Assembly (NCBI GenBank): GCA_013239625.1 | Contig: MU053629.1 | Location: 3,065,567 to 3,129,566 of the forward strand | Length of the DNA: 64,000 nucleotides | Direction: 5' to 3' | From: Lama guanicoe | Taxonomy: Eukaryota | Shown here: positions 4,292 to 61,990 of the stretch, in pieces | Numbering within the stretch: position 1 is the first letter of the stretch | Layout of the letters: each line of letters starts with the position of its first letter | Notes under the pieces: generated by a model | The model's input: the letters and a program-made list of their open reading frames with translations, nothing else | What the model was told of the DNA's origin: nothing | The model's database searches: none | Made by a program: the position numbers and the translations under genes

Positions 4292-4522
<231 letters not shown>

Positions 4523-11949: not shown

Positions 11950-12198
11950 TTAATACTTGAAAATGTAAAGAAATCTGCAAATATCACTTGTTAACCATTT
12001 AATATCTTTTCAGCTGAGGCTCCAGTTAACACTAAAGTAGAAAAGACAGGTAGAGGGTATTTGCTGTTTGGTGTTAATACTTGAAAATGTAAAAGAAGTT
12101 TGCAGATATCACTTGTTAACCATATAATACCTTTTCAGCTGAGGCTCCAGTTAACACAAAAGTAGAAAAGACAGGTAGAGGGTATTTGCTATTTGGTG
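11950..12198. repeat. Tandem duplication (124 + 125 bp) covering the 3' half and donor of coding exon 4
   Basis: Copies 11950-12073 and 12074-12198 differ by 7 substitutions and 1 indel by my count. Confidence 0.95.
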
Positions 12199-22836: not shown

Positions 22837-23086
22837 CATACTGTTATTGAGATTCTTGTCAACTTTGCAGAATGTGTGTGGTGGACTTTCTCCTTTACTG
22901 GGTATAATAATACATATGTCTGTAACAGCCAGCGTATTCTGAGTCATGTTTTCAGAGGCTCTTCGGTAAGTGATATAAATTCTTTGTGATGAGGTACTGC
23001 CACTAATATTTGCAGGGCGTCCATAGGGAGTACTCTGAATAATTTCACACCCTTGTTTCAGTCTTTCTTTCCAGTCATATAAAACC
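22837..23086 (-). CDS. DENND4A: DENND4A coding exon 2 (250 nt, MABP domain region)
   Basis: [16 protein letters not shown]...VDKNLNNSM; ttttttag acceptor, ATG|gtaagt donor; cumulative 561 nt, phase 0. Confidence 0.97.
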
Positions 23087-24262
23087 CTAAAAAATGAATT
23101 AAATAAATTAGTACACAACTACAAAGCACCCTCAAACATAAAAGGTAATATTGGCAGGTATCATAAACTGATTCTTAAATGTAGTAGATATTTCAATCTC
23201 ACTGGAAGTTTGAATTCCATAGGTCCATATAAAATTAAATAATAACTGTTGTCCCTACCAAAAATTAAAATAATGTAAGGAAAATTCAGATTAACCTATG
23301 TTTGTTGACATAAACCACAGAACAGCAATTCTATGCAAAGACACTTGTTTTAGTATTCCATTTAACAGACAGATGTCTGTCTGTCTGTCTGTCTCTAAAA
23401 TCAAGCATCATCTTTAGAAAAAGTAACTTTGTATTTTGACCAAGGTTAAAATTTTACAAAAGGCTCCTTAACATACAGTACAGAACCTGCCTGCATGCTT
23501 TTACCTCCAATACTTCCTTCAGGTTTAAGAGAGCATTTCAGGTTTTCAAAAAAGAAAATGACCTCAAATCTATCTTTAATCAAAAGTATAAGTGAAAGTT
23601 TTCCCCTTCTCCTTTATGGTAAAATCATAGGCTTTTAATAAAGGGCAGGCCAGGCTTCTATTCCTTAAAATTTCTAAATATTATTACGTAAAGTACTTGG
23701 AAACACAAAGAAAACATCGTGCTTGAATAATATTAGTTTATTTCTTCACAGAATTCACTAATTTGAACTTTAACGCTAAGTCCTTGGCATTAGTCAAAAA
23801 CAGATTTAAAGCCCTACTATATTAAATGTGTTTCTGCAATTTGCTATAAAAATTATTATAGCAGTAATGTCCCCCAAATCAATCTGTATTTATAAAATCC
23901 CATTATACAAATAAATTTAGTGCCAGAAATGGGTCAAATTATTTCTTTCTAATACAATTTTTAATTTCCCTTTTGTCCTGGTTGTCAGCAAACTTAAATT
24001 TTTTTTTCCTTTCAACATTTTATTGCGAAATTTGATGCTTAAGCATAGTAGCTATGTATATCCTAACATTAGCTTAATTGCTTATTCCTCCTTTTTAATC
24101 TTGTTTTTCTGTCTTGCCTTTTCTTAATCTTAAAAAAAGCATTGTAACAGAGAAGTTAGACACATCTAAATTCAAATTCCTACCACTTGTTTCCAGCTGT
24201 TTATCTTAGGCAGTTACTTAACTTCTCTGAGCCTTTGCTACTCAGCTATAAAATTTAAAATC

Positions 24263-27200
24263 TAACAGCTATATGGCAACAAACTGGACAACTTAGAAGA
24301 AAAGTCCATTTCTAGAAACATACAGTCCACCAAAGCTGAATCAAGAAGAAATAGATAATCTGAACAGAGCAATCACTAGAAGTGATACAGAACCAGCAAT
24401 AAAAAACCTCCCTGCAAGGAATAACTCTCCCAGACTTCAGACAATACTATAGAGCTACAGTCATCAAGACAGCATGGAATTGGTAGAAAAACAGACATAT
24501 GGGCCAATGGAACAGAATAGAGAGGCCAGAAATGAACCCACAAACTTTTGGTCAACTAATCTTTGACAAAGGAGGCAAGAATATACAATGGAATAAAGAC
24601 AGTCTCTTCAGCAAACGGTATTGGGAAAACTGGACAGCAGCATGTAAAGCTATGAATCTAGAACACTCCCTTACACCATACACAAAAATAAACTCAAAAT
24701 GGATCAAAGACTTAAACATAAGACAAGATACAATAAACCTCCTAGAAGAAAATATAGACAAAACATTATCTGACATACACCTCAAAAATATTCTCCTAAA
24801 ACAGTCTACTCAAGCAATAGAAATAAAAGCAAGAATAAACAAATGGGACTTAATGAAACTTACAAGCTTCTGCACAGAAAAGGAAATCATAAGTATAAGA
24901 AAAAGACAACCTACAGAATGGGAGAAAATTTTTGCAAATGAAACCAACAAAGGCTTGATTTCCAGAATATATAAGCAGCTCATAAGACTTAATAAGAAAA
25001 AAACAAGCAACGCAATTCAAAAATGGGCAGAAGACCTAAACAAGCAATTCTCCAAAGAAGACATACAAATGATCAAGAGGCACATGAAAAAATGTTCAAT
25101 ATCACTAATTATCAGAGAAATACAAATCAAAACTACAATGAGGTATCACCTCACACCAGTCAGAATGGCCATCATTCAAAAATCCACAAATGACAAATGC
25201 TGGAGAAGCTGGGGAGAAAAGGGAACCCTCCTACACTGGTGGGAATGCAGTTTGGTGCAGCCACTGTGGAAAACAGTATGGAGATTCCTCAAAAGACTAG
25301 GAATAGACTTACCATATGACCCAGGAATCCCGCTCCTGGGCATATATCCAGAAGGAACCCTACTTCAATGACACCTGCACCCCAATGTTCATAGCAGCAC
25401 TATTCACAATAGCCAAGACATGGAAACAGCTTAAATGTCCATCAACAGGTGACTGGATAAAGAAGATGTAGTATATTTATACAACGGAATACTATTCAGC
25501 CATAAAAACCAACAATATAACACCATTTGCAGCAACATGGATGCTCCTGGAGAATGTCATTCTAAGTGAAGTAAGCCAGAAAGAGGAAGAAAAATAACAT
25601 ATGAGATCGCTCATATGTGGAATCTAAAACAAAACAAAACAAAAAAACAAATAAAGCATAAGTACAAAACAGAGACAGACTCATAGACATAGAATACAAA
25701 CTTGTGGTTGCCAAGGGGCAGGGGGTGGGAAGGGATAGACTGAGATTTCAAAATTGTAGAATAGATAAACAAGAGTATACTGTATAGCACAGGGAAATAT
25801 ATAAAAGATCTTACGGTAGCTCACAGAGAAAAAAAAAGTGACAATGAATATTTATATGTTCATGTATAACTGAAAAATTGTGCTCTACACTGGAATTTGA
25901 CACAACATTGTAAAATGATTACAAATCAATGAAAAACATTAAAAAAAAAAAAAACCTCCCTGCAAACAAAAGTCCAGGACCAGATAGCTTCAATGGAGAA
26001 TTCCACCAAACATACAAAGAAGAATTATACCAATCCTACTCAAACTCTTCCAGAAGACTGAAGAGGAGGAAACACTCCCAAACTCATTCTATGAAGCCAC
26101 CATCACCCTGATACCAAAACCAGACAAAGACACTGGCAAAAAAGAAAATTACAGGCCAATATTGTTAATGAACATAGATGCAAAAATTCTCAACAAAATA
26201 TTATCACAGAATCCAACAGCACATAAAAAAGATTGTACATTATGATCAAGTTGGATTCATCCCAGGGACACAAGGAAGATTCAACATACGCAAATCAATC
26301 AATGTGATACAACACATCAACAAAAGGACATAAATCACATGATCATCTCAATAGATGCAGAAAAAGCATTTGATAAAACTCAACACCCATTTATGATAAA
26401 AACTCTTGCCAAAGTGGGCAAAGAGGAAACATATCTCAACACAATAAAAGCTATTTATGACAAACCCATAGCCAACAAATACTCAGCAGTGAAAAGTTAA
26501 AGCCTTCCCACTAAAATCTGAAATAAGACAAGGATGTCCACTCTCATGACTTCTATTCAACATAGTATTAAAAGTCCTAGCCATAGCAATCAGCCAAGAT
26601 AAAGAAATAAAAGGGATTCAAATTGGAAGAGAAGAGGTAAAATTATCACTATATGTGGATGACATTGATACTATATATAGAAAACCCTAAAGGCTCCACA
26701 GAAAAACAACTAAAGCTGATCAAAGAATTAGGCAAGGTAGCAGGATACAAGATTAACATACAGAAATCAGTTGCACGTCTTTATACTATCAATGAAGTAT
26801 CAGAAAAGGAAAGTAAAAAAAAATCTCTTTTAAAATCACATCAAAAAATAAAATAAAATACTTGGGAATAAACCTGACAAACGAGGTGAAAGACTTACAC
26901 ATGGAGAACTACAAAACATTAAGTAAATTAAAAATGATTTAAATAAATTGAAAGATATCCCATGCTCCTGGATTGGAAGAATTAATATTGTTAAAATGGC
27001 CATACTACTCAAAGCAATTAATCTACAGATTTAATGAGATCCCTATCAAATTACCCAGGATATTTTTCACAGAACTAGAACAAATAACCCTAAAATTTAT
27101 ATGGAATCACAAAAGACCCAGAATTGCCAAAGCAATACAGAAGAAAAAGGACGAAGCTGGAGGAATAACCCTCCCAGACTTCAGACAATACTACAGAGCT

Positions 27201-28734
27201 ACAGTAATAAAAACAGGATGGTACTGGCACAAAAATAGACAAATGGACCAATGGCACAGAATAGAGAGCCCAGAAATAAACCCACAAACCTAGAGTCAAT
27301 TAATATCTGACAAAGGAGGTAAGAATATACAATGGAGAAAAGACAAGTCTCTTCAGCAAGTGGTGTTGGGAAAGCTGGCCAGATGCATGTAAATCAATGA
27401 AGTCAGAACACTCCCTCACACCGTGCACAAAAATTAATTCAAAATGGCTTAAAGACTTAAACATAAGACAAAACACTATAAGCCTCCTAGAAGAAAACAT
27501 GCAAAACATTCTCTGACATAACCTTAACAATGTTCTCCTAGGGCAGTCTACCCAGGCAATAGAAATAAAAGCAAAAATAAACAAATGGGACCTAAATAAA
27601 TTGATAGGCTTTTGCATAGCAAAGGAAACTATAAACAAAACAAAAGGACACCCTACAGAAAGGGAAAAAGTATTTGCAAATGATGTGACTGACAAGGGCT
27701 TAATTTCCAGAATATATAAACAGCTCATACGACTTAATAACAGAAAACCCCAATTCAACCCAATCCAAAAATGGGCAGAAAACCTAAACAAGCAATTCTC
27801 CAATGAAGACATACAAATGGCCAATAGGCACATGAAAAAATGCTCAGTATTGCTATTTATCAGAGAAATGCAAATCAAAACTACAAAGAGGCACCATATC
27901 ACACTAGTCAGAATGGCCATCATTCAAAAGTCCACAAATGATATATGCTGGAGAGGATGTGGAGAAAAGGGAACCCTCCTACACTGCTGGTGGGAATGTA
28001 GTTTGGTGAAGCCTTTATGGAAAACAGTATGGAAATTCCTTAAAAAACTAAAAATAGACTTACCATATGATCCAGCAATCCCACTCCTAGGTATATATCT
28101 AGAAAGAACTCTAACTCAAAAAGATATGCACCCCATGTTCAAACAGCACTATTCACAATAGCCAAGACATGGAAGAAGCAACCTAAATGTCCATCAACAG
28201 ATGACTGGATAAAGAAGTTGTGGTGTATATATATATATACATATACATACATACATACACACATACACACAAGGGAATACTACTCAGCCATAAAAAGAAT
28301 AAAATAATGCCATTTACTGCAATATGAATGGACATGGAGATTGTCATTCTAAGTGAAGTAAGCCAGAAAGAAAAAGAAAAATACCACATGATAACACTTA
28401 TATGTGAAATCTGAAAAAAGACACCAATGAACATATTTACAAAACAGAAACAGACTCACAGACATAGAAAATAAACTTATGTTACCAGGTGGGGAAGGGG
28501 ATGGAAAGGGATAAACTGGAAGTTCAAGATTTGCAGATACTAACTACTATATATCAAAAAGATAAACAACAAGTTTATATTGTATAGCTCAGGAAAGTAT
28601 ATTCAATATCTTGTAGTAATCTATCATGAAAAAGAATATGAAAACAAATATATGCATGTATATGTACAACTGAAACATTATGCTATATGCCAGAAATTGA
28701 TACAACATTGTAAACTGACTATACTTCAATTTAA
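24263..28734 (+). mobile_element. Older 5'-truncated LINE-1 (degenerate ORF2 RT region to 3' UTR), interrupted by the younger L1
   Basis: L1 ORF2 peptides ([49 protein letters not shown]) with frameshifts; sequence continuous across the inner TSD. Confidence 0.93.
24418..25948 (+). mobile_element. Young 5'-truncated LINE-1 (ORF2 C-terminus + 3' UTR + polyA)
   Basis: 290-aa ORF 24499-25371 typical of L1 ORF2p C-terminus; polyA; perfect 17-bp TSD AAAAAACCTCCCTGCAA at 24401-24417 and 25949-25965. Confidence 0.95.
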
Positions 28735-31866: not shown

Positions 31867-32177
31867 CCCAGATCTGTAAGTGGAGGTTTATCTCTTCCTC
31901 TTCTATAGCAAAGGAAAATCTGTGGCCCCACAAGACTCCCATTGTTGAGATCAGCTGACAATCCAGTTGGGGTAACGTCAATACAGGTATAATCCCGTGG
32001 CACTTCCTCCCCCAGAGATTTAATAATAACTGAAACATCTGTGATAGGTTCTTTTGGTTTAGCTACTTTATGACAGGCATCATTGAAGTGAATTTCTTCT
32101 TCAAGAGGCTTTGAAACATCAGTTAATCCTGCTACAACAAAGTAGTCAGCAACACGAGGCCCCTTATCTTCAATCAT
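31867..32177 (-). CDS. DENND4A: DENND4A coding exon 1 (start ATG; exon itself begins at 32199), 311 coding nt
   Basis: [17 protein letters not shown]...[10 protein letters not shown]; acceptor ttccttttag at 32200-32201, donor GG|gtaagt at 31865-31866; phase 2. Confidence 0.97.
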
Positions 32178-33501
32178 CTTCCATTACAGAAGGTTACACC
32201 TAAAAGGAAAGTGAAAGACTAGTATTCTCCTATAATAAACCAAATAAATGTAAGTGGTTTGTGTACAAATAAGAACGAAAACTACAAAAAAGAGCACTAC
32301 CTCCCTGATAAACACACTAATATTATAAATTCATTTTCATACGTAAAAAGTATGTCTTTTTTTTAAAAAAATAGGAATATACTTAGTCTTTCTTAAATTT
32401 TAAAAGTAATGCATGAATTTCCATTTTTGGCAATACTTAGATTACCTAAGTAGACAACAAAAACACACACATCCTTTTAAATGCATAGACTGACTTGTAA
32501 AAACGTAAGTGAAATTCCCAGGGCCCAAAAACAGTAAGGAAACAGAGGCCAGAATGCAGTGTATAAGCTGATACTGGGTGGGTGAAATTTTCTGATCTTA
32601 GTAATTAAAGGGCTTGTGTTTTAAAAGGTATTTACAGGGACAGGATACAAAGCCTTGGGACCACATAAGATAGGAAATTGGAATTGAGACATCTGTATAA
32701 AGCCAAGAGCCTTGAAGGACTATATCCTGAGTTAAAGAGTGGATTTCAAAAATCCATCCACTGGTACAGGGAGATATCAAGTCTGCTTCAGTCTGGGCCC
32801 ACCTTTGGAGGCAGGGGTGGGTACATAGTCTCTTCTGAGAATGTGTAACAATAGGCCTACTCACATGTGGATTTTAGGTTTGACCTTAAGTCATCTGCAT
32901 GGTCCCAGAAAGCTCCAAACTGAGATGTTAACAATAACTGTGTTCCCAGGCTAGTGGTACTTCTGGGGAAGCAAATGCAAAAAAGTTCCAGAGGGTAAAC
33001 CCTCAACACAGGTTTTCCACAGGTAACGCCCTGCTGAAGATGACCTCCTATTCCTAAACTACAAAAAAACAGAGAAAAACTACCCTGAATGAGTTTCAGC
33101 AGATACAACAAACAGAAGAACTTCAAATAATGAAAGTAGGGCAGAGATTATAACAGTAATGCATGCTTATAACAAATTCAAAGAAAAAAATACAGAGTAG
33201 AATTCATAATGTATTTGCAAACACTTTAATGGTAAAATCTCCTTTAGTTGACTAGTATCAATTAAACCTTACTTGTTTCTTGAACTAGAAGAACACAACC
33301 CCCCCCAGCAGTATTGTCATCACTTACATAACAGTTAAAGGAAAAAGTTTAACCTAAAACAGAAATCTCCCAAATGTGTCTCATGTTAGATTTATCTCCA
33401 ATAAATGCAAAGAAAGAATTCCATGAAAAAATAAATTAGGTATATATACTACATGCCTCTTTAATATATTTATAGTATACATTAAAATATTCAAGCCCCA
33501 G

Positions 33502-33680: not shown

Positions 33681-36600
33681 AAAATATTAAAGCCTCAGAA
33701 GTTCTTTGATAAAAGTATTAGATTAGCTTCGCTTAGCCCAGGATTTCCCAAGTCTAATTGAACAATTAACCCTATTTTCCCATTTAAAAACTAGAAAAAA
33801 CCCTCAGACCACACTTTAGAAAATGCTATTTAAAAAGAACAACCTTCCTTGTAGACTATAAAATACCTGAGGGTGAAGAAACTCTCATGTAGGATACTTG
33901 TTTATAACTGTCGCCATTTTCATCATAATCCCAAAACTTTTAATTTTCTATATTGCCAATGTTATGAGTTTTTCAAATTCATGCCACATTTCTTTGAATC
34001 TGTATCCATTGCTCAAATATACTCTATATTCTCACTATTTGCTTAGAAAACAAGCCTGAACAAGGATCAAATGGTCCTACTTGTTTTATTTAGATATATA
34101 TGACTCCTATGTGGCAATTCCCTACATATAAAGATTTCTGCACAAAATAAAGGGCTTAGGGTTTTCAGAAATGCCTCTGAGACTGACAGTAAAGAAAAGG
34201 TAATAACTTGTTCTCCTGAGAAGACCTGGTTAAATATATTGAATAGCCACTCTCAGCTGACTGCATATTACAGGTGCTCTACAAAAAAATTAAAAATAAA
34301 AATAACAGTTGACCATCTATCCATCTTTTTTAAGTAGGAGAACAAAAGCACTTTTAAAAAAAACATTTTTATATTTAACTTTGCTTCTTCATTAAATAGT
34401 CTTTGAAAATTATTTTTAATGGCTGCATAGTATTTTATTTTAATGGCTGTAATATTATTGACCTATTTCCTTATTATTGATCATTAATTACATCTACTTA
34501 CTTTGCTAGTAGTTTTTAAATGCTAAGATGAATAACCTTAAACATAAACCTCTAGTTACAGCTCTTATTATTTCTTCAGGATAAATTTATTGAAGTAGAA
34601 TTATTGGGTCAAAGTTACACATACTAACAGCTTCTGTAAGTGTTTATGTGCTTTTATGCGTGTATAAATTTTAAATTACATGCTCTTGATAGACATAAGT
34701 CTTAAAAATTACCTTGGTAGAGCACTTTCCTTTCATTATAATGAAAAGATTTAAATATTCTTTTTCCTAGATTCTAACTTCACATTATTTAAAATAAAGC
34801 ATACGGTCACTATTACATACAATGAAGTTTAACATCTTGCTATGCAGAAAGAAGGGAGACAGAATGCAAACAGTATTATGATGAAAACATATCTATATTT
34901 AATAGGTTCTTTTGAAAGCTACTACCTTAGCCATTGGAAATAAACAGCTATTATACTATTAAGCAGGTATCTAGGAAAAAACTATATGAATCTTGTTTTT
35001 GTTAGATCTTCCTGGTTCACAAATTTTAATAATTTGCTCTGATTCACAATTAAATACATTAAATAACCACTAAAAGGGAACGAGTTATTGTTCTTCATCA
35101 ACACGTAAAAGAAAAAAAAATCAATTTTAAAATAATGATAAAATCCTCTTACATTTATTGACAGAAAAGTAAACTGTATTATTACTCCAGTTCTCTTGCC
35201 TTGATGTTCTTATTGTTGTTTTCCATTTATTCATTTAGGGGTGGAAAGTGGTAAGGAAGGTAGACAAAGCATTTTAAGGCACTGCTGACAAAGTATATAA
35301 AGCCAAGAGAAGAGGTGGCAACATTCCAGGTGACTTCTAGATCTAAATGCTCTTTAATTCACTCAGGAAGAGTCTATAATACTGAAAATGTACCTCTACC
35401 TTTTATTTTAAATCGAATGTTTTTAAAGTAAGTTTGAGGTTTGGAAGCTGAGGGAAGAGACTGTTACAAATTACAAGACAAAGAAAACACTGAAAATCTT
35501 CAATATAGACATGAATAACGAACACAACTTCCTAACAATTTCAATAAACCAAGAGACTTCCATTTGCAGGGTGAAATTTACAACCCTCATGGAACACACT
35601 AAACACATATTAAGACAAAATGCTTTGTGTTGGCAAGAGCCACCAAAAATTACTTGGAAAGAGCATTTGAGGAAAACATTCATAGTCAACATACAAAACT
35701 AGGACCTTAGTGTAAGTACATCTGAGCAAAATCCCCTAAACAATTAGGAGGTAAATTTCTTTAAAATCATTTTGGAAACTGGGGGCCACACAAAACAAGC
35801 ATTTGATCCAACAGTTCTCTAATCATGGTAATATAAAACCCTAAAACAACTTTACTCAAGCTCAAGTAACAATACTACACCATTAACCAGTTATTGGTTT
35901 TTTAATTCTTTATTCAACATGATACAGACAATTTAAGAGTTAGATCACAAGGTATTTACAGGCATCTTCTTAAAATTTCAGATACCTGCTTGACTAGTAT
36001 TTCGCTTCAAATTACATCTATTTTCTTTGAGACTAGAAAACAAGAAAGATGTGCTCTCAATTCCTAAAAGGTTCATGAGAACTAAATTGAGAAATCATTA
36101 TGAGGAAGCTCTTATCCACTCAGCAACTAATGGAGACTGACCTGTTTTTCTCCCTTTCAATCTCTGCCCAGTCAATTCAGAATCTTTTTTATTTCTTCTA
36201 CCACTCCATTAGGTCAAGCAGTAAAGCATTTGCTATCTAGGCTAACTCTAAAGACACAAAAAGGCAAGAGTGGAAATCAGAAGTAACATTTTAAAGATAC
36301 ATGAAAAACAAAAAAATCTGAACATAATAGTTTTGCAAAATTATAAACCATTACTGAAATGGTAAAAGGAGCAAAGGCTTTCAGAAAGGGCATAATAGTC
36401 ATAAACTCAGGATTATACATGAAAATGCTTGGAACACAATGGACCAGTTCAACTCCCCCTCACCTCAGTTCACTTAAAGAAATAAGCTAGAATAAATTTT
36501 CTTTCTTTCTTTTAATGCAATTTCACAGTTAAAAACCTAACAGCTCATCTTTTCTCACACTATCAAAACTAAACTAGAGACCCTCATTCCCATCTTTTCT

Positions 36601-38310
36601 AAACTTCACCTCTCATTCTTCTTCTAACCAAGGTTATTTATCTACTGTTCTTCTAACACAGTTTTGTTCTTTTCCTCTTCGATGATACACTATTACTTTT
36701 TTCTAGTCAATATATGTTCATTATATTTTCCCAAACAATTTAACTTTATGTGGATTTTCATTTAAACTTTAAGAATTGTACAGAGAGAAAAAAAATTCAA
36801 CAATTCTATTCACAATAATAAATCTGGTTTATATCTAACAATGTTTCCTACTTTGAGAACAGAAAACAGCCTTCTAATCCTCATGCAGTTATAATATAAA
36901 TATTTATATTTTTATTTAATAACCATTATTCTAAACTGTTAAAATCTTCATAAATATACAAAATGATTACATAACATCCCATCAAATACACTATAATCAG
37001 TACTTCATTTCTCCTTCCCCAGCTAGTACCCAAAGTATGGTAGGTTTAAAATTTTTTAAGTGAATGAATAGTTAACTTTATAACTTTCCTCAAGTATATT
37101 TTACTAAATGTAATGTCTTTTTTCTATAATTCAGAATCAATTTTTTGAACCTTAATTACCTTAAATACTGTAGTTGTTAAATGTAGGATAAACATAGATA
37201 AACTAGCTAATTTGAATCTAACCACCAGGGCCTTGGGCAAAACTAGAAATTTACTAAGTAACTGATTCACTCATTCAATGAATTTTTCCTAAACACTTTT
37301 TAAGGTCTGACACTATTCTAAGAGCTGGTGACGATACTGATGAAAGCCAGTCTCTGTCTTCAAAGAGTTTCTTGTTTAATTTTTTCACATCTCTTTTCTA
37401 TACTTTTATTCCACTTCTAGAAATCTTTCCTCCTACCACCCTTCCAGATCCCAAGGACTTGCCTTCACTCAGCCCAAAGTTTTTCTACCAGTTTCTCCCC
37501 AAAGCCCCAAGTACAGATGTGATTCCTACTTTTTTGTTCCTTTCCCTCATCTCCATAAAAACTGGCACTCCTTCAGCATCAACATTCTATGGAGATTGTG
37601 AAAGGGGAGAAATCTTATGTGTATATCATATTTAATAGTAGGTTTACTTGCTTTTAAAAAGGTTTAACCTATCCAAGCCAAACTTGACTTTTTAAAAGTA
37701 ACTGTTAGTAGCCCAAATTGATGGACTATGTTGGGCAAATTTCTTGACCAAAGGGGGCTTATTTATCTTCTAGTCCACTTTGGAATCATCTCTTCTCTCA
37801 ATACCTATTCCCAAGCAGAAACCAACAACAAAAAATCAAAATGCAATTGTGTAATCTAACAGCTCCCTTTTGAAAGATTATCAACCCCTGATTTATATAT
37901 TTTTAAAAAGTTAAGATAGGAGTAACAGACATTTAAAGAGGAAGAGATCTTTTCATTAGTGATAGTCTAATGCCTTATTTTATAGCTAAAGGAACTTAAG
38001 CACAGAAGGTGGCTTAGTTAAGGATATCCAGCTAGTTAGTGGTTGAGCCTGGTTAAGAACTCAAATCCCTTTAACCATATCTTTACATTTGGAGATGTTG
38101 TCTCTCTAGTAAATGGTGTTGAATTAATACTGACCCCAAACATCTTTTCAATAAGTTATTTTGTGTCACTTGTTACTCATAATCATTGTTTGGTGAATAT
38201 ATGCCAAATTCTTGTTAAGAGATCTGGTAAATAAACATTTCACTGTGTTTATATAGAAAATAGCTAATAAAAACAAATAAAATCAAACAGACATAAAAAA
38301 AATTACTTAC

Positions 38311-38389
38311 ACATTACTGAAAGCCTCTCTCTGAAAATGATGCCAGGTCTCAATTTGTGAATTATGCACACCTCAGAGTTTGAGAAACA
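38311..38389 (-). other. DENND4A: Probable DENND4A non-coding exon 2 (79 nt)
   Basis: Polypyrimidine acceptor ttcttttcaatacag (AG at 38390-38391) and donor TGT|gtaagt (38309-38310); size agrees with my unverified recollection of a second 5'-UTR exon in human DENND4A. Confidence 0.65.
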
Positions 38390-41300
38390 CTGTATTGAAA
38401 AGAATAAGAATTGAGCTTAAATTAATTCCAATCAAATATTTCCCCCTAAGATGCCTGTGACAACTTAAAAGTTCTGTTAACAATGATAATTATCAAACAA
38501 AATGATTGCATATATTGTTCTCACACGGTTAAGAGTCAGTAAGTAATTTTTATACGCCAGCTCTTCTAGAATACCATTTCAGTCAAGAATAAACATTCTT
38601 AAAAATAAAAAAAGCAGATAAGGGAGAGAAAGATAGAGAGAAATAAAAGAATAAGTAGGACACAAAAGAGTAAATGTATATAGGAGCCAAGAGGAAGAGA
38701 AACATGCCTATTTCTGAGGCATTATATATAGTATCTCATTCCTAGAAGAAAAATATAAGCACAAGCACAAGAGGAAGAAACCAGAGCTTTAACCAATGTG
38801 GACTATCTACTAATGACAGGGAAGTAGCAGCAGTAGGAGACACCAGATTTACCTAATTTGGATGGTCCTTGGTTTGTGTCTGTGGAAAGTGGGAGAGAAA
38901 TGGGGAAAGGCCCAAAATCATCTGAGCCAAGATTTGATTAAAGTGTCTTAGATTGGAATGAAGGGTGAAAAGGATGAATGAGAAAAACAACAACAGTACA
39001 ATCATGTTACATTTTAGACTGCTAAAAAATGGTCCAGATATGTGTTTTAAAAATTAGTATACCACTCCACTTCAGATTCACTGAATATTTTCAGTCAGTA
39101 AATATGGAGTGGCACAAATATATACATATATATTTCAAATATTTCTAAAATCTTATTGCTGACAGGTATCAATCAAAGAGATAATGTAACTACTGACCTG
39201 CTGGAACATTTTCTAAATTCAACATCAAATAATCACAAAAATGCTCTAGTTGAAATAATCTATGTATATAAAAATACTTGTAAATTTTGAAAACTACAGC
39301 TCATATTTTATTAGTATAATATCAGATTGTTTTGATGCAATTATGAATTATGAATGTACTATATAACCAATTCCAAATAAATTTTCTGCTACATTAAGTT
39401 TCCTAATACAGTAAGAACATTGTTTTGATAATGACTCCGTGCTCCACTAAACTCAACATTTGTTTGTTACTCAAAAAACAAAGCATTTTCTTCAATGCTG
39501 AAATTTTAAAATTAATTTATAGCAGTATTCACAGTATTGAATGTTTCATCTTTGACAGAATGAACTTCAAAAACCTTTATTTTGATTTCATGAATTGTAT
39601 GAAATAAACTGACCCATTTTTAGAATTTAACTGATTTCCTATTACAGAGAAGATGAGACTGATAAAAAACTACAGAGTTTTTTACAGAGTTCTGCTACAG
39701 GAGACAACACATTATAGCTAGTGCTTCACTTACCATACGTGCAGAAAATTTACAATGAAAAATGTGTAAAATCTATTTGGTAAAGCATCTTTTGATGGAA
39801 ATGGAAAGTCATGCTACTCAAAGTGATATTCCAATGTGTTTCCTGCAGCTACACCTGTTAGATTATCTTTCAGCACTGATTCCTTTAAATTGCTATTATT
39901 TTTAATTGAATTTTTTATTTTCAAATAATTGTAGATTCACATTCAGTTAAAAAAAATAATAGAGGTCTAGTATATTTTTTTACCCAGTTTCTCCCAATGG
40001 TAACATCTTGCAAAACTATAGCACAATCACAGGCGGGATTGTACATTGATGCAATCCCCCTTATTCTGATTTCCCCATTTGCATTCATTTGTGTACGTGC
40101 ACGTATGTATGTATGCGTATTTGGTTTTATACAATTTTATTACACGCGCAGTTTCATTTATTTATCACCAAAGTCAAGATACAGAGTAGTTCCATCGCAA
40201 GGATCCTTAGCGTTGACCTTTTCTAAGTATGCCCACTTCCCTCCTGCCTCTTCCTTGCCACTGTGCCTAATCCTCATGGAGTTACAGCATATAGAGCCAA
40301 TGAAAGGAAAAGACGATGTCTCTAAAAGCAATACCCCCCTCACAAAATAGGTATGGCAACAAACCAGAGAAAAAAAGCATATATGATGTGGAAAGACTTG
40401 CTGGTCACATTTACTCAACCATCTGGAACATTTTATTTGAACATGATTATACAAACATATAAATGCACAGACATATGCATGCATACAGAAGATAGGCACA
40501 GAGAGTGATCATTTACTAAATCACAATGAAGATGAATCTCCTTAGCTCTGAGATAAATTTTCTTATCATGAATAAATTCCAGGCTGGAATCAAGTGAACA
40601 ACATAAAATAATGCTACAGAACAGCTACAATGGGGATTCCTAGATGTATAAGAAAATAAAAAGGAGTCTTTCAGTGTGTTCAGGGGCAACTCTGCCCCTC
40701 CCCAAGAAATGAGGTTTGAACTAAAGTAGCTGGTATTCCCTTGAGAATATGGATCTGGTTTGGAGAGAACAGGAACTATTTCTAGTCCTAGAAATAACTG
40801 AGGGTTAATATGCAGATACCTCTTGTCTCTCTAGACAGGCTATGAACAATTGAAAAGCAGGAACTCTGTCTTTTATTTCTTTTGATTCCTTCACATAAAT
40901 TATAGGAGTTATAAACACATGGTAGGTGTATAAATATTTCTTAAATGAATGAGGTCAGCACAGTAGGAAAAAAAAAAAAAGAAAGACACCACAGAATCTT
41001 AGGATTTTAGAGCTAGGAGGGTTCCTGGAGATTTAGCTTTATAAGTGAAGAAACTGAGGCAGAAAAGTTAAACAGCTCGTCTAAGACCAAATACATCAAT
41101 TTATGACTCAACTCTCATGGCTTTTAATTTGGAATTCTACTATACCATACCTCAATTCAAGAAAGAAAGAGAAGAAAGTAATTCCCTGAGGAACCCTGTG
41201 TGTTAATTAGTGAACATGTGCTTTGATGGACCAAAAAAGTTAATAGGTAAGTAGAAGTTAAACTGGCTGAAGAGAGTGGGGGAAATTGGTAGGTAAGAAA

Positions 41301-61079: not shown

Positions 61080-61990
61080 CAAGCATCCGATGCAGAGGCG
61101 CCCGTGCTACTCTCAGCACCACCGCGCCAGCCGGAGCGGACCCAGCTCGCGGAGAACGGCCAGGCTCCGAGAAGCCCCCGGGCGGAGGTCGCGGCCATCC
61201 GCGCCACCTCTCCGAGCCCTGCCGACCCCGCTCCCGCGCCCACGGCTGTCACTACTCCGGGCAGTGACAGCTCCACATGCCACCGCTGTCCGCGCCGCCG
61301 CCCCCGCACTTACCTCACCGCTGGCTCCGGCGCGAACAGCGGGTCCAGGTTTGAGAGCGGTGCCGGGTCCACTCACGAGCGGCGGCAGGACACGAGGGGC
61401 TGAATGCCGCGGCGCTCCGAACCCGCTTAGCTCATCCCTAGCCCGGCGCTCCGCCCTGCGCGGCACCCCCGCCCGCCCAGGCCTGCCGTCTCAGTCAGAC
61501 GGGGTTCCCCTCCCCTCGCGGCCGCCGCTGCCTCCGCCTCCTTCCCTGGCTCCAGCCGCCGCGGCCGCCGCCGCTGCGACCGGCGCCATCTTGGCAGTGA
61601 CGGAGGGGGCGGAGGCGGGGATCGCGGCCTGCAGGCGCCAATGGCGGGTCAGGCCCGTGCCCGAGGGGGCGGGATAGGACTGGGTTGAGGGTCGTGGGGT
61701 CCTAGCGCCTGATCGTAAGCGGGGCGGAGAAGGTGGGCGGGGCTGCGCTGCGTTCTCTCCTGACGCGCGGTTTAGTTGGGGAAACGCGCTGTGGTTCCCC
61801 TTTTGGCTGGAAGATCCGGAGCCTGAGGAGAGCGTGGGTGACACACACCTTCCCTTCCCCTTTCACCACCTCGAGGGTCAGGGATCCGTCCTGGGCCAAC
61901 TGACCTGTTTCTTCCTTCCTCCCCAGCAGCCGCAGGAGTCCTGACATTGCCTAGCCAAAGCTCGTCGCGTCTGCCTGAGCGGCCGCTCCT
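61080..61990. promoter_or_regulatory. CpG island / TATA-less promoter of DENND4A
   Basis: Abrupt GC- and CpG-rich island in an AT-rich window; several GGGGCGG GC boxes (~61605-61742), CCAAT at 61638-61642, YY1-type CGCCATCTTG at 61584-61593. Confidence 0.9.
61314..61600 (-). other. DENND4A: DENND4A non-coding exon 1 (5' UTR), TSS approximate
   Basis: GC-rich segment in CpG island ending in consensus donor GAG|gtaagt (61312-61313); YY1-like CAAGATGGCG near the 5' end; GC boxes just upstream. Confidence 0.75.

Follow-up and report, generated by a model that had tools for sequence, protein, structure and literature searches.

The minus strand of the window, by which we mean the whole 64,000-nt stretch of guanaco (Lama guanicoe) DNA analysed here, carries the 5' half of DENND4A within a 2.05-Gb mammalian assembly, and its repeats are presumably of camelid type. 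The first 79 codons were 95–100% identical to C-myc promoter-binding protein, or DENN domain containing 4A, in the 120 listed matches of a total of 1,617, and the names of these 120 bore out the gene identity given in the first-pass annotation. The mapped features of the gene itself were as follows.

61314..61589, minus strand: exon 1, in a CpG island, with the donor GAG/GTAAGT at 61314.
32178..32199, minus strand: untranslated part of the ATG exon, 22 nt, with an in-frame stop at -9.
32174..32177, minus strand: main DENND4A ATG, overlapped by the TGA that terminates the junction uORF described below, from translation of the predicted spliced leader.
32199, 23086, 14091, 12300, 11194, 8035, 6586, 4870 and 4468, minus strand: coding exons mapped here.

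The acceptor of the ATG exon (32200/32199) lies 22 nt upstream of the main ATG (32177), and the in-frame stop at -9 prevents any N-terminal extension of the main ORF. Within the coding part, the 59-nt exon 6586–6528 (minus) has the GC donor AAG/GCAAGT, that is, a GC-AG intron, and a 125-bp tandem duplication at 11950–12198 (two copies, 93% match), either genuine or an assembly artefact, covers the 3' end and donor of exon 12300–12131, so that a second copy of this donor stands 125 nt downstream. By exon 4468 the coding positions exceed the human ones by one codon (c.1315 versus c.1312), and we presume that the extra codon lies in the 242-nt exon 11194–10953 (minus). Repeats were also seen: 24487–28307 (plus) holds what we take, from the translations, to be broken LINE-1 ORF2-like fragments antisense to DENND4A, and 33830–33690 (minus), in intron 2, resembles what is presumably an old hAT/Charlie-type remnant.

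Between exon 1 and the ATG exon, a 79-nt segment with acceptor and donor signals had been proposed as a further leader exon, and the segment and its signals were confirmed from the sequence.

38311..38389, minus strand: candidate internal 5'UTR exon, 79 nt, proposed on splice signals and human numbering.

The acceptor has its AG at 38391–38390 and 13/17 pyrimidines, and the donor reads TGT/GTAAGT, with GTAAGT at 38310, a hexamer common to four other mapped exons (exon 1, E4, E5 and E7). A crude splice-signal rule, applied to 29,114 nt of intron, was satisfied by four candidate exons in the sense direction, this segment included, and by two in antisense, so that the signals alone cannot settle exon status. 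The human gene provides a second line of evidence. Position c.1361 of human DENND4A is placed in exon 11 of GENCODE v24 in the available part of PMC8933504, where a T>A change at this position is described as creating an acceptor 51 nt inside that exon. The guanaco exon at 4468, which is the ninth coding exon, begins at c.1315 and carries a Leu codon CTG at nt 49–51, and it corresponds to human E11 with a number one codon off the human one. As the ninth coding exon is numbered 11 in human, exon 3 must be the human ATG exon and two leader exons stand upstream of it, and the human numbering in this way implies one additional, putative leader exon. We take this second human leader exon to be 79 nt long. 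A human DENND4A circRNA of 1,509 nt (PMC8924452, as far as available) equals, by arithmetic, 22 nt plus c.1–1487, in agreement with the 22-nt offset of the exon 3 acceptor. On this anatomy, segment 38389–38311 is probably a genuine internal non-coding leader exon of DENND4A that would be spliced in guanaco, with a modest extra damping when included. Folding of the 79-nt segment was unremarkable (z -0.51; 54/200 shuffles fold equally well), and the idea of a hairpin or mini-palindrome was rejected. A literature search that reached few subscription journals, with genome-browser annotation outside its scope, returned, among the papers listed, no description of the 79-nt exon or of DENND4A leader uORFs.

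The predicted joins were then translated for upstream ORFs, and two upstream ATGs were found close to the main start.

38312..38314, minus strand: uATG at -26, start of a nine-codon junction uORF, with G at -3 and T at +4.
32170..32184, minus strand: uATG at -7 and four-codon ORF (MEDD) overlapping the main start, with G at -3 and G at +4.

In the predicted 38311>32199 join, the uORF from 38314 runs for nine codons (MCVTFCNGR) and stops at +1 on the main ATG, as ATGA, just as first read. The 61314>32199 join is without this uORF, and the earlier statement that exon skipping deletes it is thus correct, as is the statement that ATGs in three frames converge near the start, which were located at -26, -7 and 0. 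With the predicted splice, the ATGs at -26 and -7 are both out of frame, and their ORFs run through the 5'UTR to stops at +1 and +5, respectively, which places both among overlapping uORFs. The -7 ORF, whose AUG stands in a strong context, occurs in both predicted isoforms, so skipping takes away just one of the two overlapping uAUGs. The main start itself has A at -3 and A at +4. Exon 1 contributes two more uORFs to both predicted isoforms, of 32 codons from 61589 (to 61491) and of two codons from 61435. The 32-codon uORF has a strong context, and its start matches the annotated mouse 5' end, so that it may be too cap-proximal for use.

The striking part of this arrangement, the ATGA overlap, was compared with chance. 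MIEDK is the N-terminus in 120/120 listed orthologues, and since all Ile codons begin with A, any uORF that enters in the corresponding frame must end on the main ATG. As a null, 19,580 slices of 79 nt were drawn at random from introns 1 and 2 in the sense direction, and each was joined to the ATG exon. An ATG was present in 77% of these slices, a junction-spanning uORF resulted in 51%, and 19% gave a junction uORF that stops at +1. The ATGA overlap simply follows from Ile at codon 2, and the arrangement as a whole lies within chance.

The mouse leader offered an outside comparison. The mouse Dennd4a 5'UTR has been cloned from MN1 cDNA with listed primers (Table S9 of PMC6326785). The forward primer begins at an ATG matching 61589, and in the reverse primer 21 nt are homologous to the leader part of exon 3 and 17 nt come from further upstream. 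When we aligned these 17 nt with the end of the 79-nt exon, no likeness was found (p 0.26, n 4,899; 0.49 with another cut). They matched intron-2 positions 36132–36116 at 16 of 17 positions, for which a hand estimate of the chance probability in 29 kb is about 1e-4, and the primer was accordingly dropped as evidence for an orthologue of the 79-nt exon.

36116..36247, minus strand: intron-2 region, homologous at its 3' end to the exon that adjoins the ATG exon in the cloned mouse leader, from the mouse primer match.

The cloned mouse transcript therefore has another exon adjoining the ATG exon. The AUG at the end of that exon falls at -25, shares its frame with the -7 ORF and gives no ATGA overlap. 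At the guanaco site, which is single-copy in the genome, GT is missing from the donor homologous to that of the mouse exon, and GTG stands in place of the mouse ATG; the mouse-type exon at 36116–36247 is a candidate in guanaco. A pyrimidine-rich acceptor at 36247 and a CAG/GTCAGT donor at 36142 would delimit a possible 106-nt exon with two short uORFs. The leader anatomy as first read thus held in its uORF arithmetic and overlooked the different mouse leader exon.

These results bear directly on whether the 79-nt segment might be a pseudo-exon, intronic here, with exon 1 joined to the ATG exon either directly or via, for example, 36247–36142. The different exon ahead of the mouse ATG exon counts against the leader-exon reading, as do the three other sense segments, next to the two antisense ones, that satisfy the same crude rule, and no DENND4A retrocopy was found in the genome that could display a spliced form. 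Against a pseudo-exon stand the two leader exons of the human annotation, a GTAAGT donor identical to those of exon 1, E4, E5 and E7, and the loss of GT from the guanaco donor homologous to that of the mouse exon. On balance we regard a pseudo-exon as unlikely, and a genuine leader exon remains our preferred reading.

We further compared the leader with more distant sequences. A protein-led scan of 348 stretches gave two loci, one of which, L056, is a DENND4A orthologue with 85% identity. Going by its repeats, L056 is presumably bird-like. In this locus, too, 22 nt separate the acceptor from the ATG; the last 11 nt of the leader are identical, and the stop at -9 is kept. L056 has a four-codon -7 ORF with the same end point despite a different codon 2, and since it reads ATGG, no stop/start overlap exists there; the ATGA overlap is thus missing both from this locus and from the cloned mouse leader. 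No homologue of the 79-nt exon was detected in 4.8 kb upstream in L056 (p 0.45, 200 shuffles), a contig that may be too short for this. The mouse primer retains the -7 ATG together with the G three positions before it, and it has a stop at -9. An elephant-shrew model (P0062) begins two residues earlier with ME, which suggests that its extension is the -7 ATG shifted into frame. Of the leader features examined, the -7 AUG was the best conserved, being present in L056 and mouse and, in frame, in P0062. These three outside comparisons are too few for statistics, and the -7 AUG is a better candidate for reporter tests than the 79-nt exon. In the second locus of the scan, L057 (1408–1427), which we take to be the paralogue DENND4C, 17 nt lie between acceptor and ATG, with no upstream ATG among them and none at -7. 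In the search for orthologous DNA, an exact 33-mer had 0 matches in metagenomes, prokaryote genomes yielded 0 of 230, and viral contigs gave one weak match (L059).

The first-pass annotation had also read the start of the 79-nt exon as a transposon end that may supply the acceptor AG.

38357..38392, minus strand: hAT/MER5-type terminus-like stretch that takes in the acceptor CAG, with a repeat-end word as its first 16 nt and a marginal match over the next ~20 nt.

We take the family to be a MER5A/B-type hAT-Charlie MITE. The 16-mer from 38392 has 196 copies in the genome versus 2 for the reversed control. An internal seed was used to pick 21 loci, of which L033 (same place as L012) and L044 (a short near-duplicate of L048) were left out. 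On the end profile built from the remaining 19 copies, the 16-mer scored 19.5 bits, and 15 of its 16 nt agreed with the majority letters. The exon start was the top of 285 prefiltered window sites at 24.4 bits; one of five shuffled windows gave 26.7, and all 21 copies picked by the seed, of which 19 are in the profile, scored 27.7–61.9 versus the 24.4 of the exon start. Past the 16-mer, the match added 2.9–8.4 bits over three gap settings, with p 0.03–0.11 against about 1,950 intron slices and 0.06–0.14 against 1,000 shuffles. Ranked by this extension among 30 loci with the 16-mer, the exon was 16th with 4.9 bits, while 12 of the 29 others were clear copies at 10.9–33.5. The only non-self 23-mer match of the exon start is a full MER5-like copy, and 6/9 non-self 20-mer matches were MER5-like by eye. 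A whole-element profile (20 copies, nhmmer) gave no match at the 79-nt exon, the 36-mer with up to three mismatches matched only itself, and neither element body nor far end was found, the exon tail giving a lowest p of 0.03 against 38 loci, with 3/38 under 0.05. By eye, no 8-bp target-site duplication was visible around the exon, which has no far end for comparison. The claimed transposon end thus stands for the first 16 nt, is marginal beyond them, and is plausible as the source of the acceptor AG on the 16-mer, with a weak extension and no body on the other side. We put roughly even chances on a decayed hAT/MER5-type terminal remnant of at most ~36 nt supplying the AG, because the repeat-end word sits exactly at the acceptor. 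The likeness stops by about nt 36 from the CAG, and the uATG, at exon nt 76, is outside it; a transposon source of the donor and the uATG has no support.

If included, the 79-nt exon would place an out-of-frame AUG of moderate context 26 nt ahead of the main start. Ribosomes initiating at -26 would translate nine codons, stop on the main AUG and be lost to the main ORF, whose initiation would rely on scanning past -26 and on competition with the -7 AUG present in both isoforms. The predicted net effect of inclusion is a modest additional damping of DENND4A output. In yeast, AUGs compete when they lie within about 17 nt of each other, and an out-of-frame uATG is more inhibitory at -25 than at -7 and may provoke NMD (PMC9743702, available part). 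A short uORF overlapping the main start excludes translation of the main ORF in the sections available of PMC10275272. The yeast spacing data and the mutual exclusivity of overlapping uORFs together lead to the expectation that inclusion should divert part of the scanning ribosomes at -26. In mouse, Dennd4a has a log2 TE of -1.43 and is down 0.31 upon Denr depletion (adjusted p 0.22; values from the available tables of PMC6547434), which is compatible with active uORFs and not significant. A search by gene name found DENND4A 0 times in the six supplements to a study of human sORFs by Ribo-seq (PMC10032668), an absence that counts against active uORFs, and the supplements available for PMC11057154 held no DENND4A rows.

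The first-pass annotation had gone further and proposed that alternative splicing of the exon switches DENND4A translation. This proposal was not sustained, with the overlap forced by Ile2, common by chance and absent from L056 and mouse. A regulated switch in the strict sense, in which tissue- or condition-specific skipping removes the -26 uORF and substantially raises DENND4A translation, would draw on the facts that skipping does eliminate the junction uORF and that the mouse intermediate exon likewise terminates in an AUG, at -25, where stronger inhibition than at -7 is expected from yeast (PMC9743702, in part). In addition, mouse Dennd4a has skipped exons sensitive to hnRNP A1/A2B1, their position unstated in the available portion of PMC13408116. 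Set against this are the -7 AUG, retained in both forms; the presence of an ATG in 77% of random slices, which makes it the default for such an exon; and the one mapped DENND4A cassette in the literature examined, which is coding exon 4, at 23086 (PMC5991522). In the accessible text of that study the cassette is ADAR-sensitive, and ADAR1 editing of its human 3' splice site leads to skipping; the guanaco acceptor at 23088–23086 (minus) corresponds to that site. We consider the switch rather improbable; if true, it would allow DENND4A dose to be adjusted through splicing. The gene has been proposed to drive the death of motor neurons, and TDP-43 represses a reporter with its mouse 5'UTR (PMC6326785, in part).

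Slightly more doubtful still is a broader scenario, in which an ancient pair of AUGs, spaced by 7 nt and kept from a bird-like amniote to mammals, would set DENND4A dose, and mammalian lineages would independently have recruited different leader exons that end in an AUG at -25/-26 (the guanaco exon from a DNA-transposon end, the mouse exon from another intron-2 site), with regulated inclusion tuning translation and NMD by tissue. Least credible, and in our judgement to be set aside, is a coupling of termination to main-AUG reinitiation by the ATGA overlap, as in caliciviruses and influenza B: the overlap seen here, though of the stop-start type of TURBS, is imposed by Ile2 and absent from L056 and mouse, the 79-nt exon shows no TURBS-like upstream structure (z -0.51), and UGGGA, which we take to be the TURBS core complementary to 18S, is absent from the exon plus the 22-nt leader. 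Viruses do employ AUGA and UAAUG overlaps for reinitiation, but these cases require a TURBS element and follow long ORFs, and after short uORFs the reinitiation start is downstream of the stop (PMC10275272, as available).

Our preferred reading, a probable leader exon with a modest damping effect, makes the 79-nt exon one further case of a common class, the uAUG-bearing mammalian leader exon. A uAUG occurs in 42.5% of 18,764 MANE 5'UTRs and an overlapping ORF in 15.0% (PMC11057154). With the overlapping uORFs of mammalian 5'UTRs (the available parts of PMC11057154 and PMC10275272), DENND4A shares an out-of-frame uAUG, a stop not upstream of the main start and a bypass by leaky scanning; unlike in the typical case, two predicted ORFs (-26 and -7) converge in DENND4A, one of them across a splice junction. 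The DENND4A pair 7 nt apart falls inside the ~17-nt range of closely spaced AUG competition, for which the data come from yeast libraries, HeLa reporters and in vitro systems (PMC9743702 and PMC4770231, in part), whereas the DENND4A pair is read from the sequence. Transposon-derived uATGs (TuATGs) have been described (Kitano 2018, as cited in the available text of PMC13690279). The -26 ATG differs from them in lying outside the transposon-like stretch and not within transposon-derived sequence. Alu exons in 5'UTRs were reportedly the subject of work by Shen in 2011. What DENND4A may share with TuATGs and Alu leader exons is a repeat-derived splice signal that brings a uAUG exon into the leader and lowers translation; in contrast to these, its likeness is to a DNA-transposon end, not to a SINE or LINE, and concerns at most the acceptor end. 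Compared with MER5A/B-type MITEs, the exon lacks the internal body and the far end and extends the match by 4.9 bits versus 10.9–33.5, consistent with at most a short terminal remnant at the acceptor of a probable leader exon that otherwise belongs to a familiar mammalian class.
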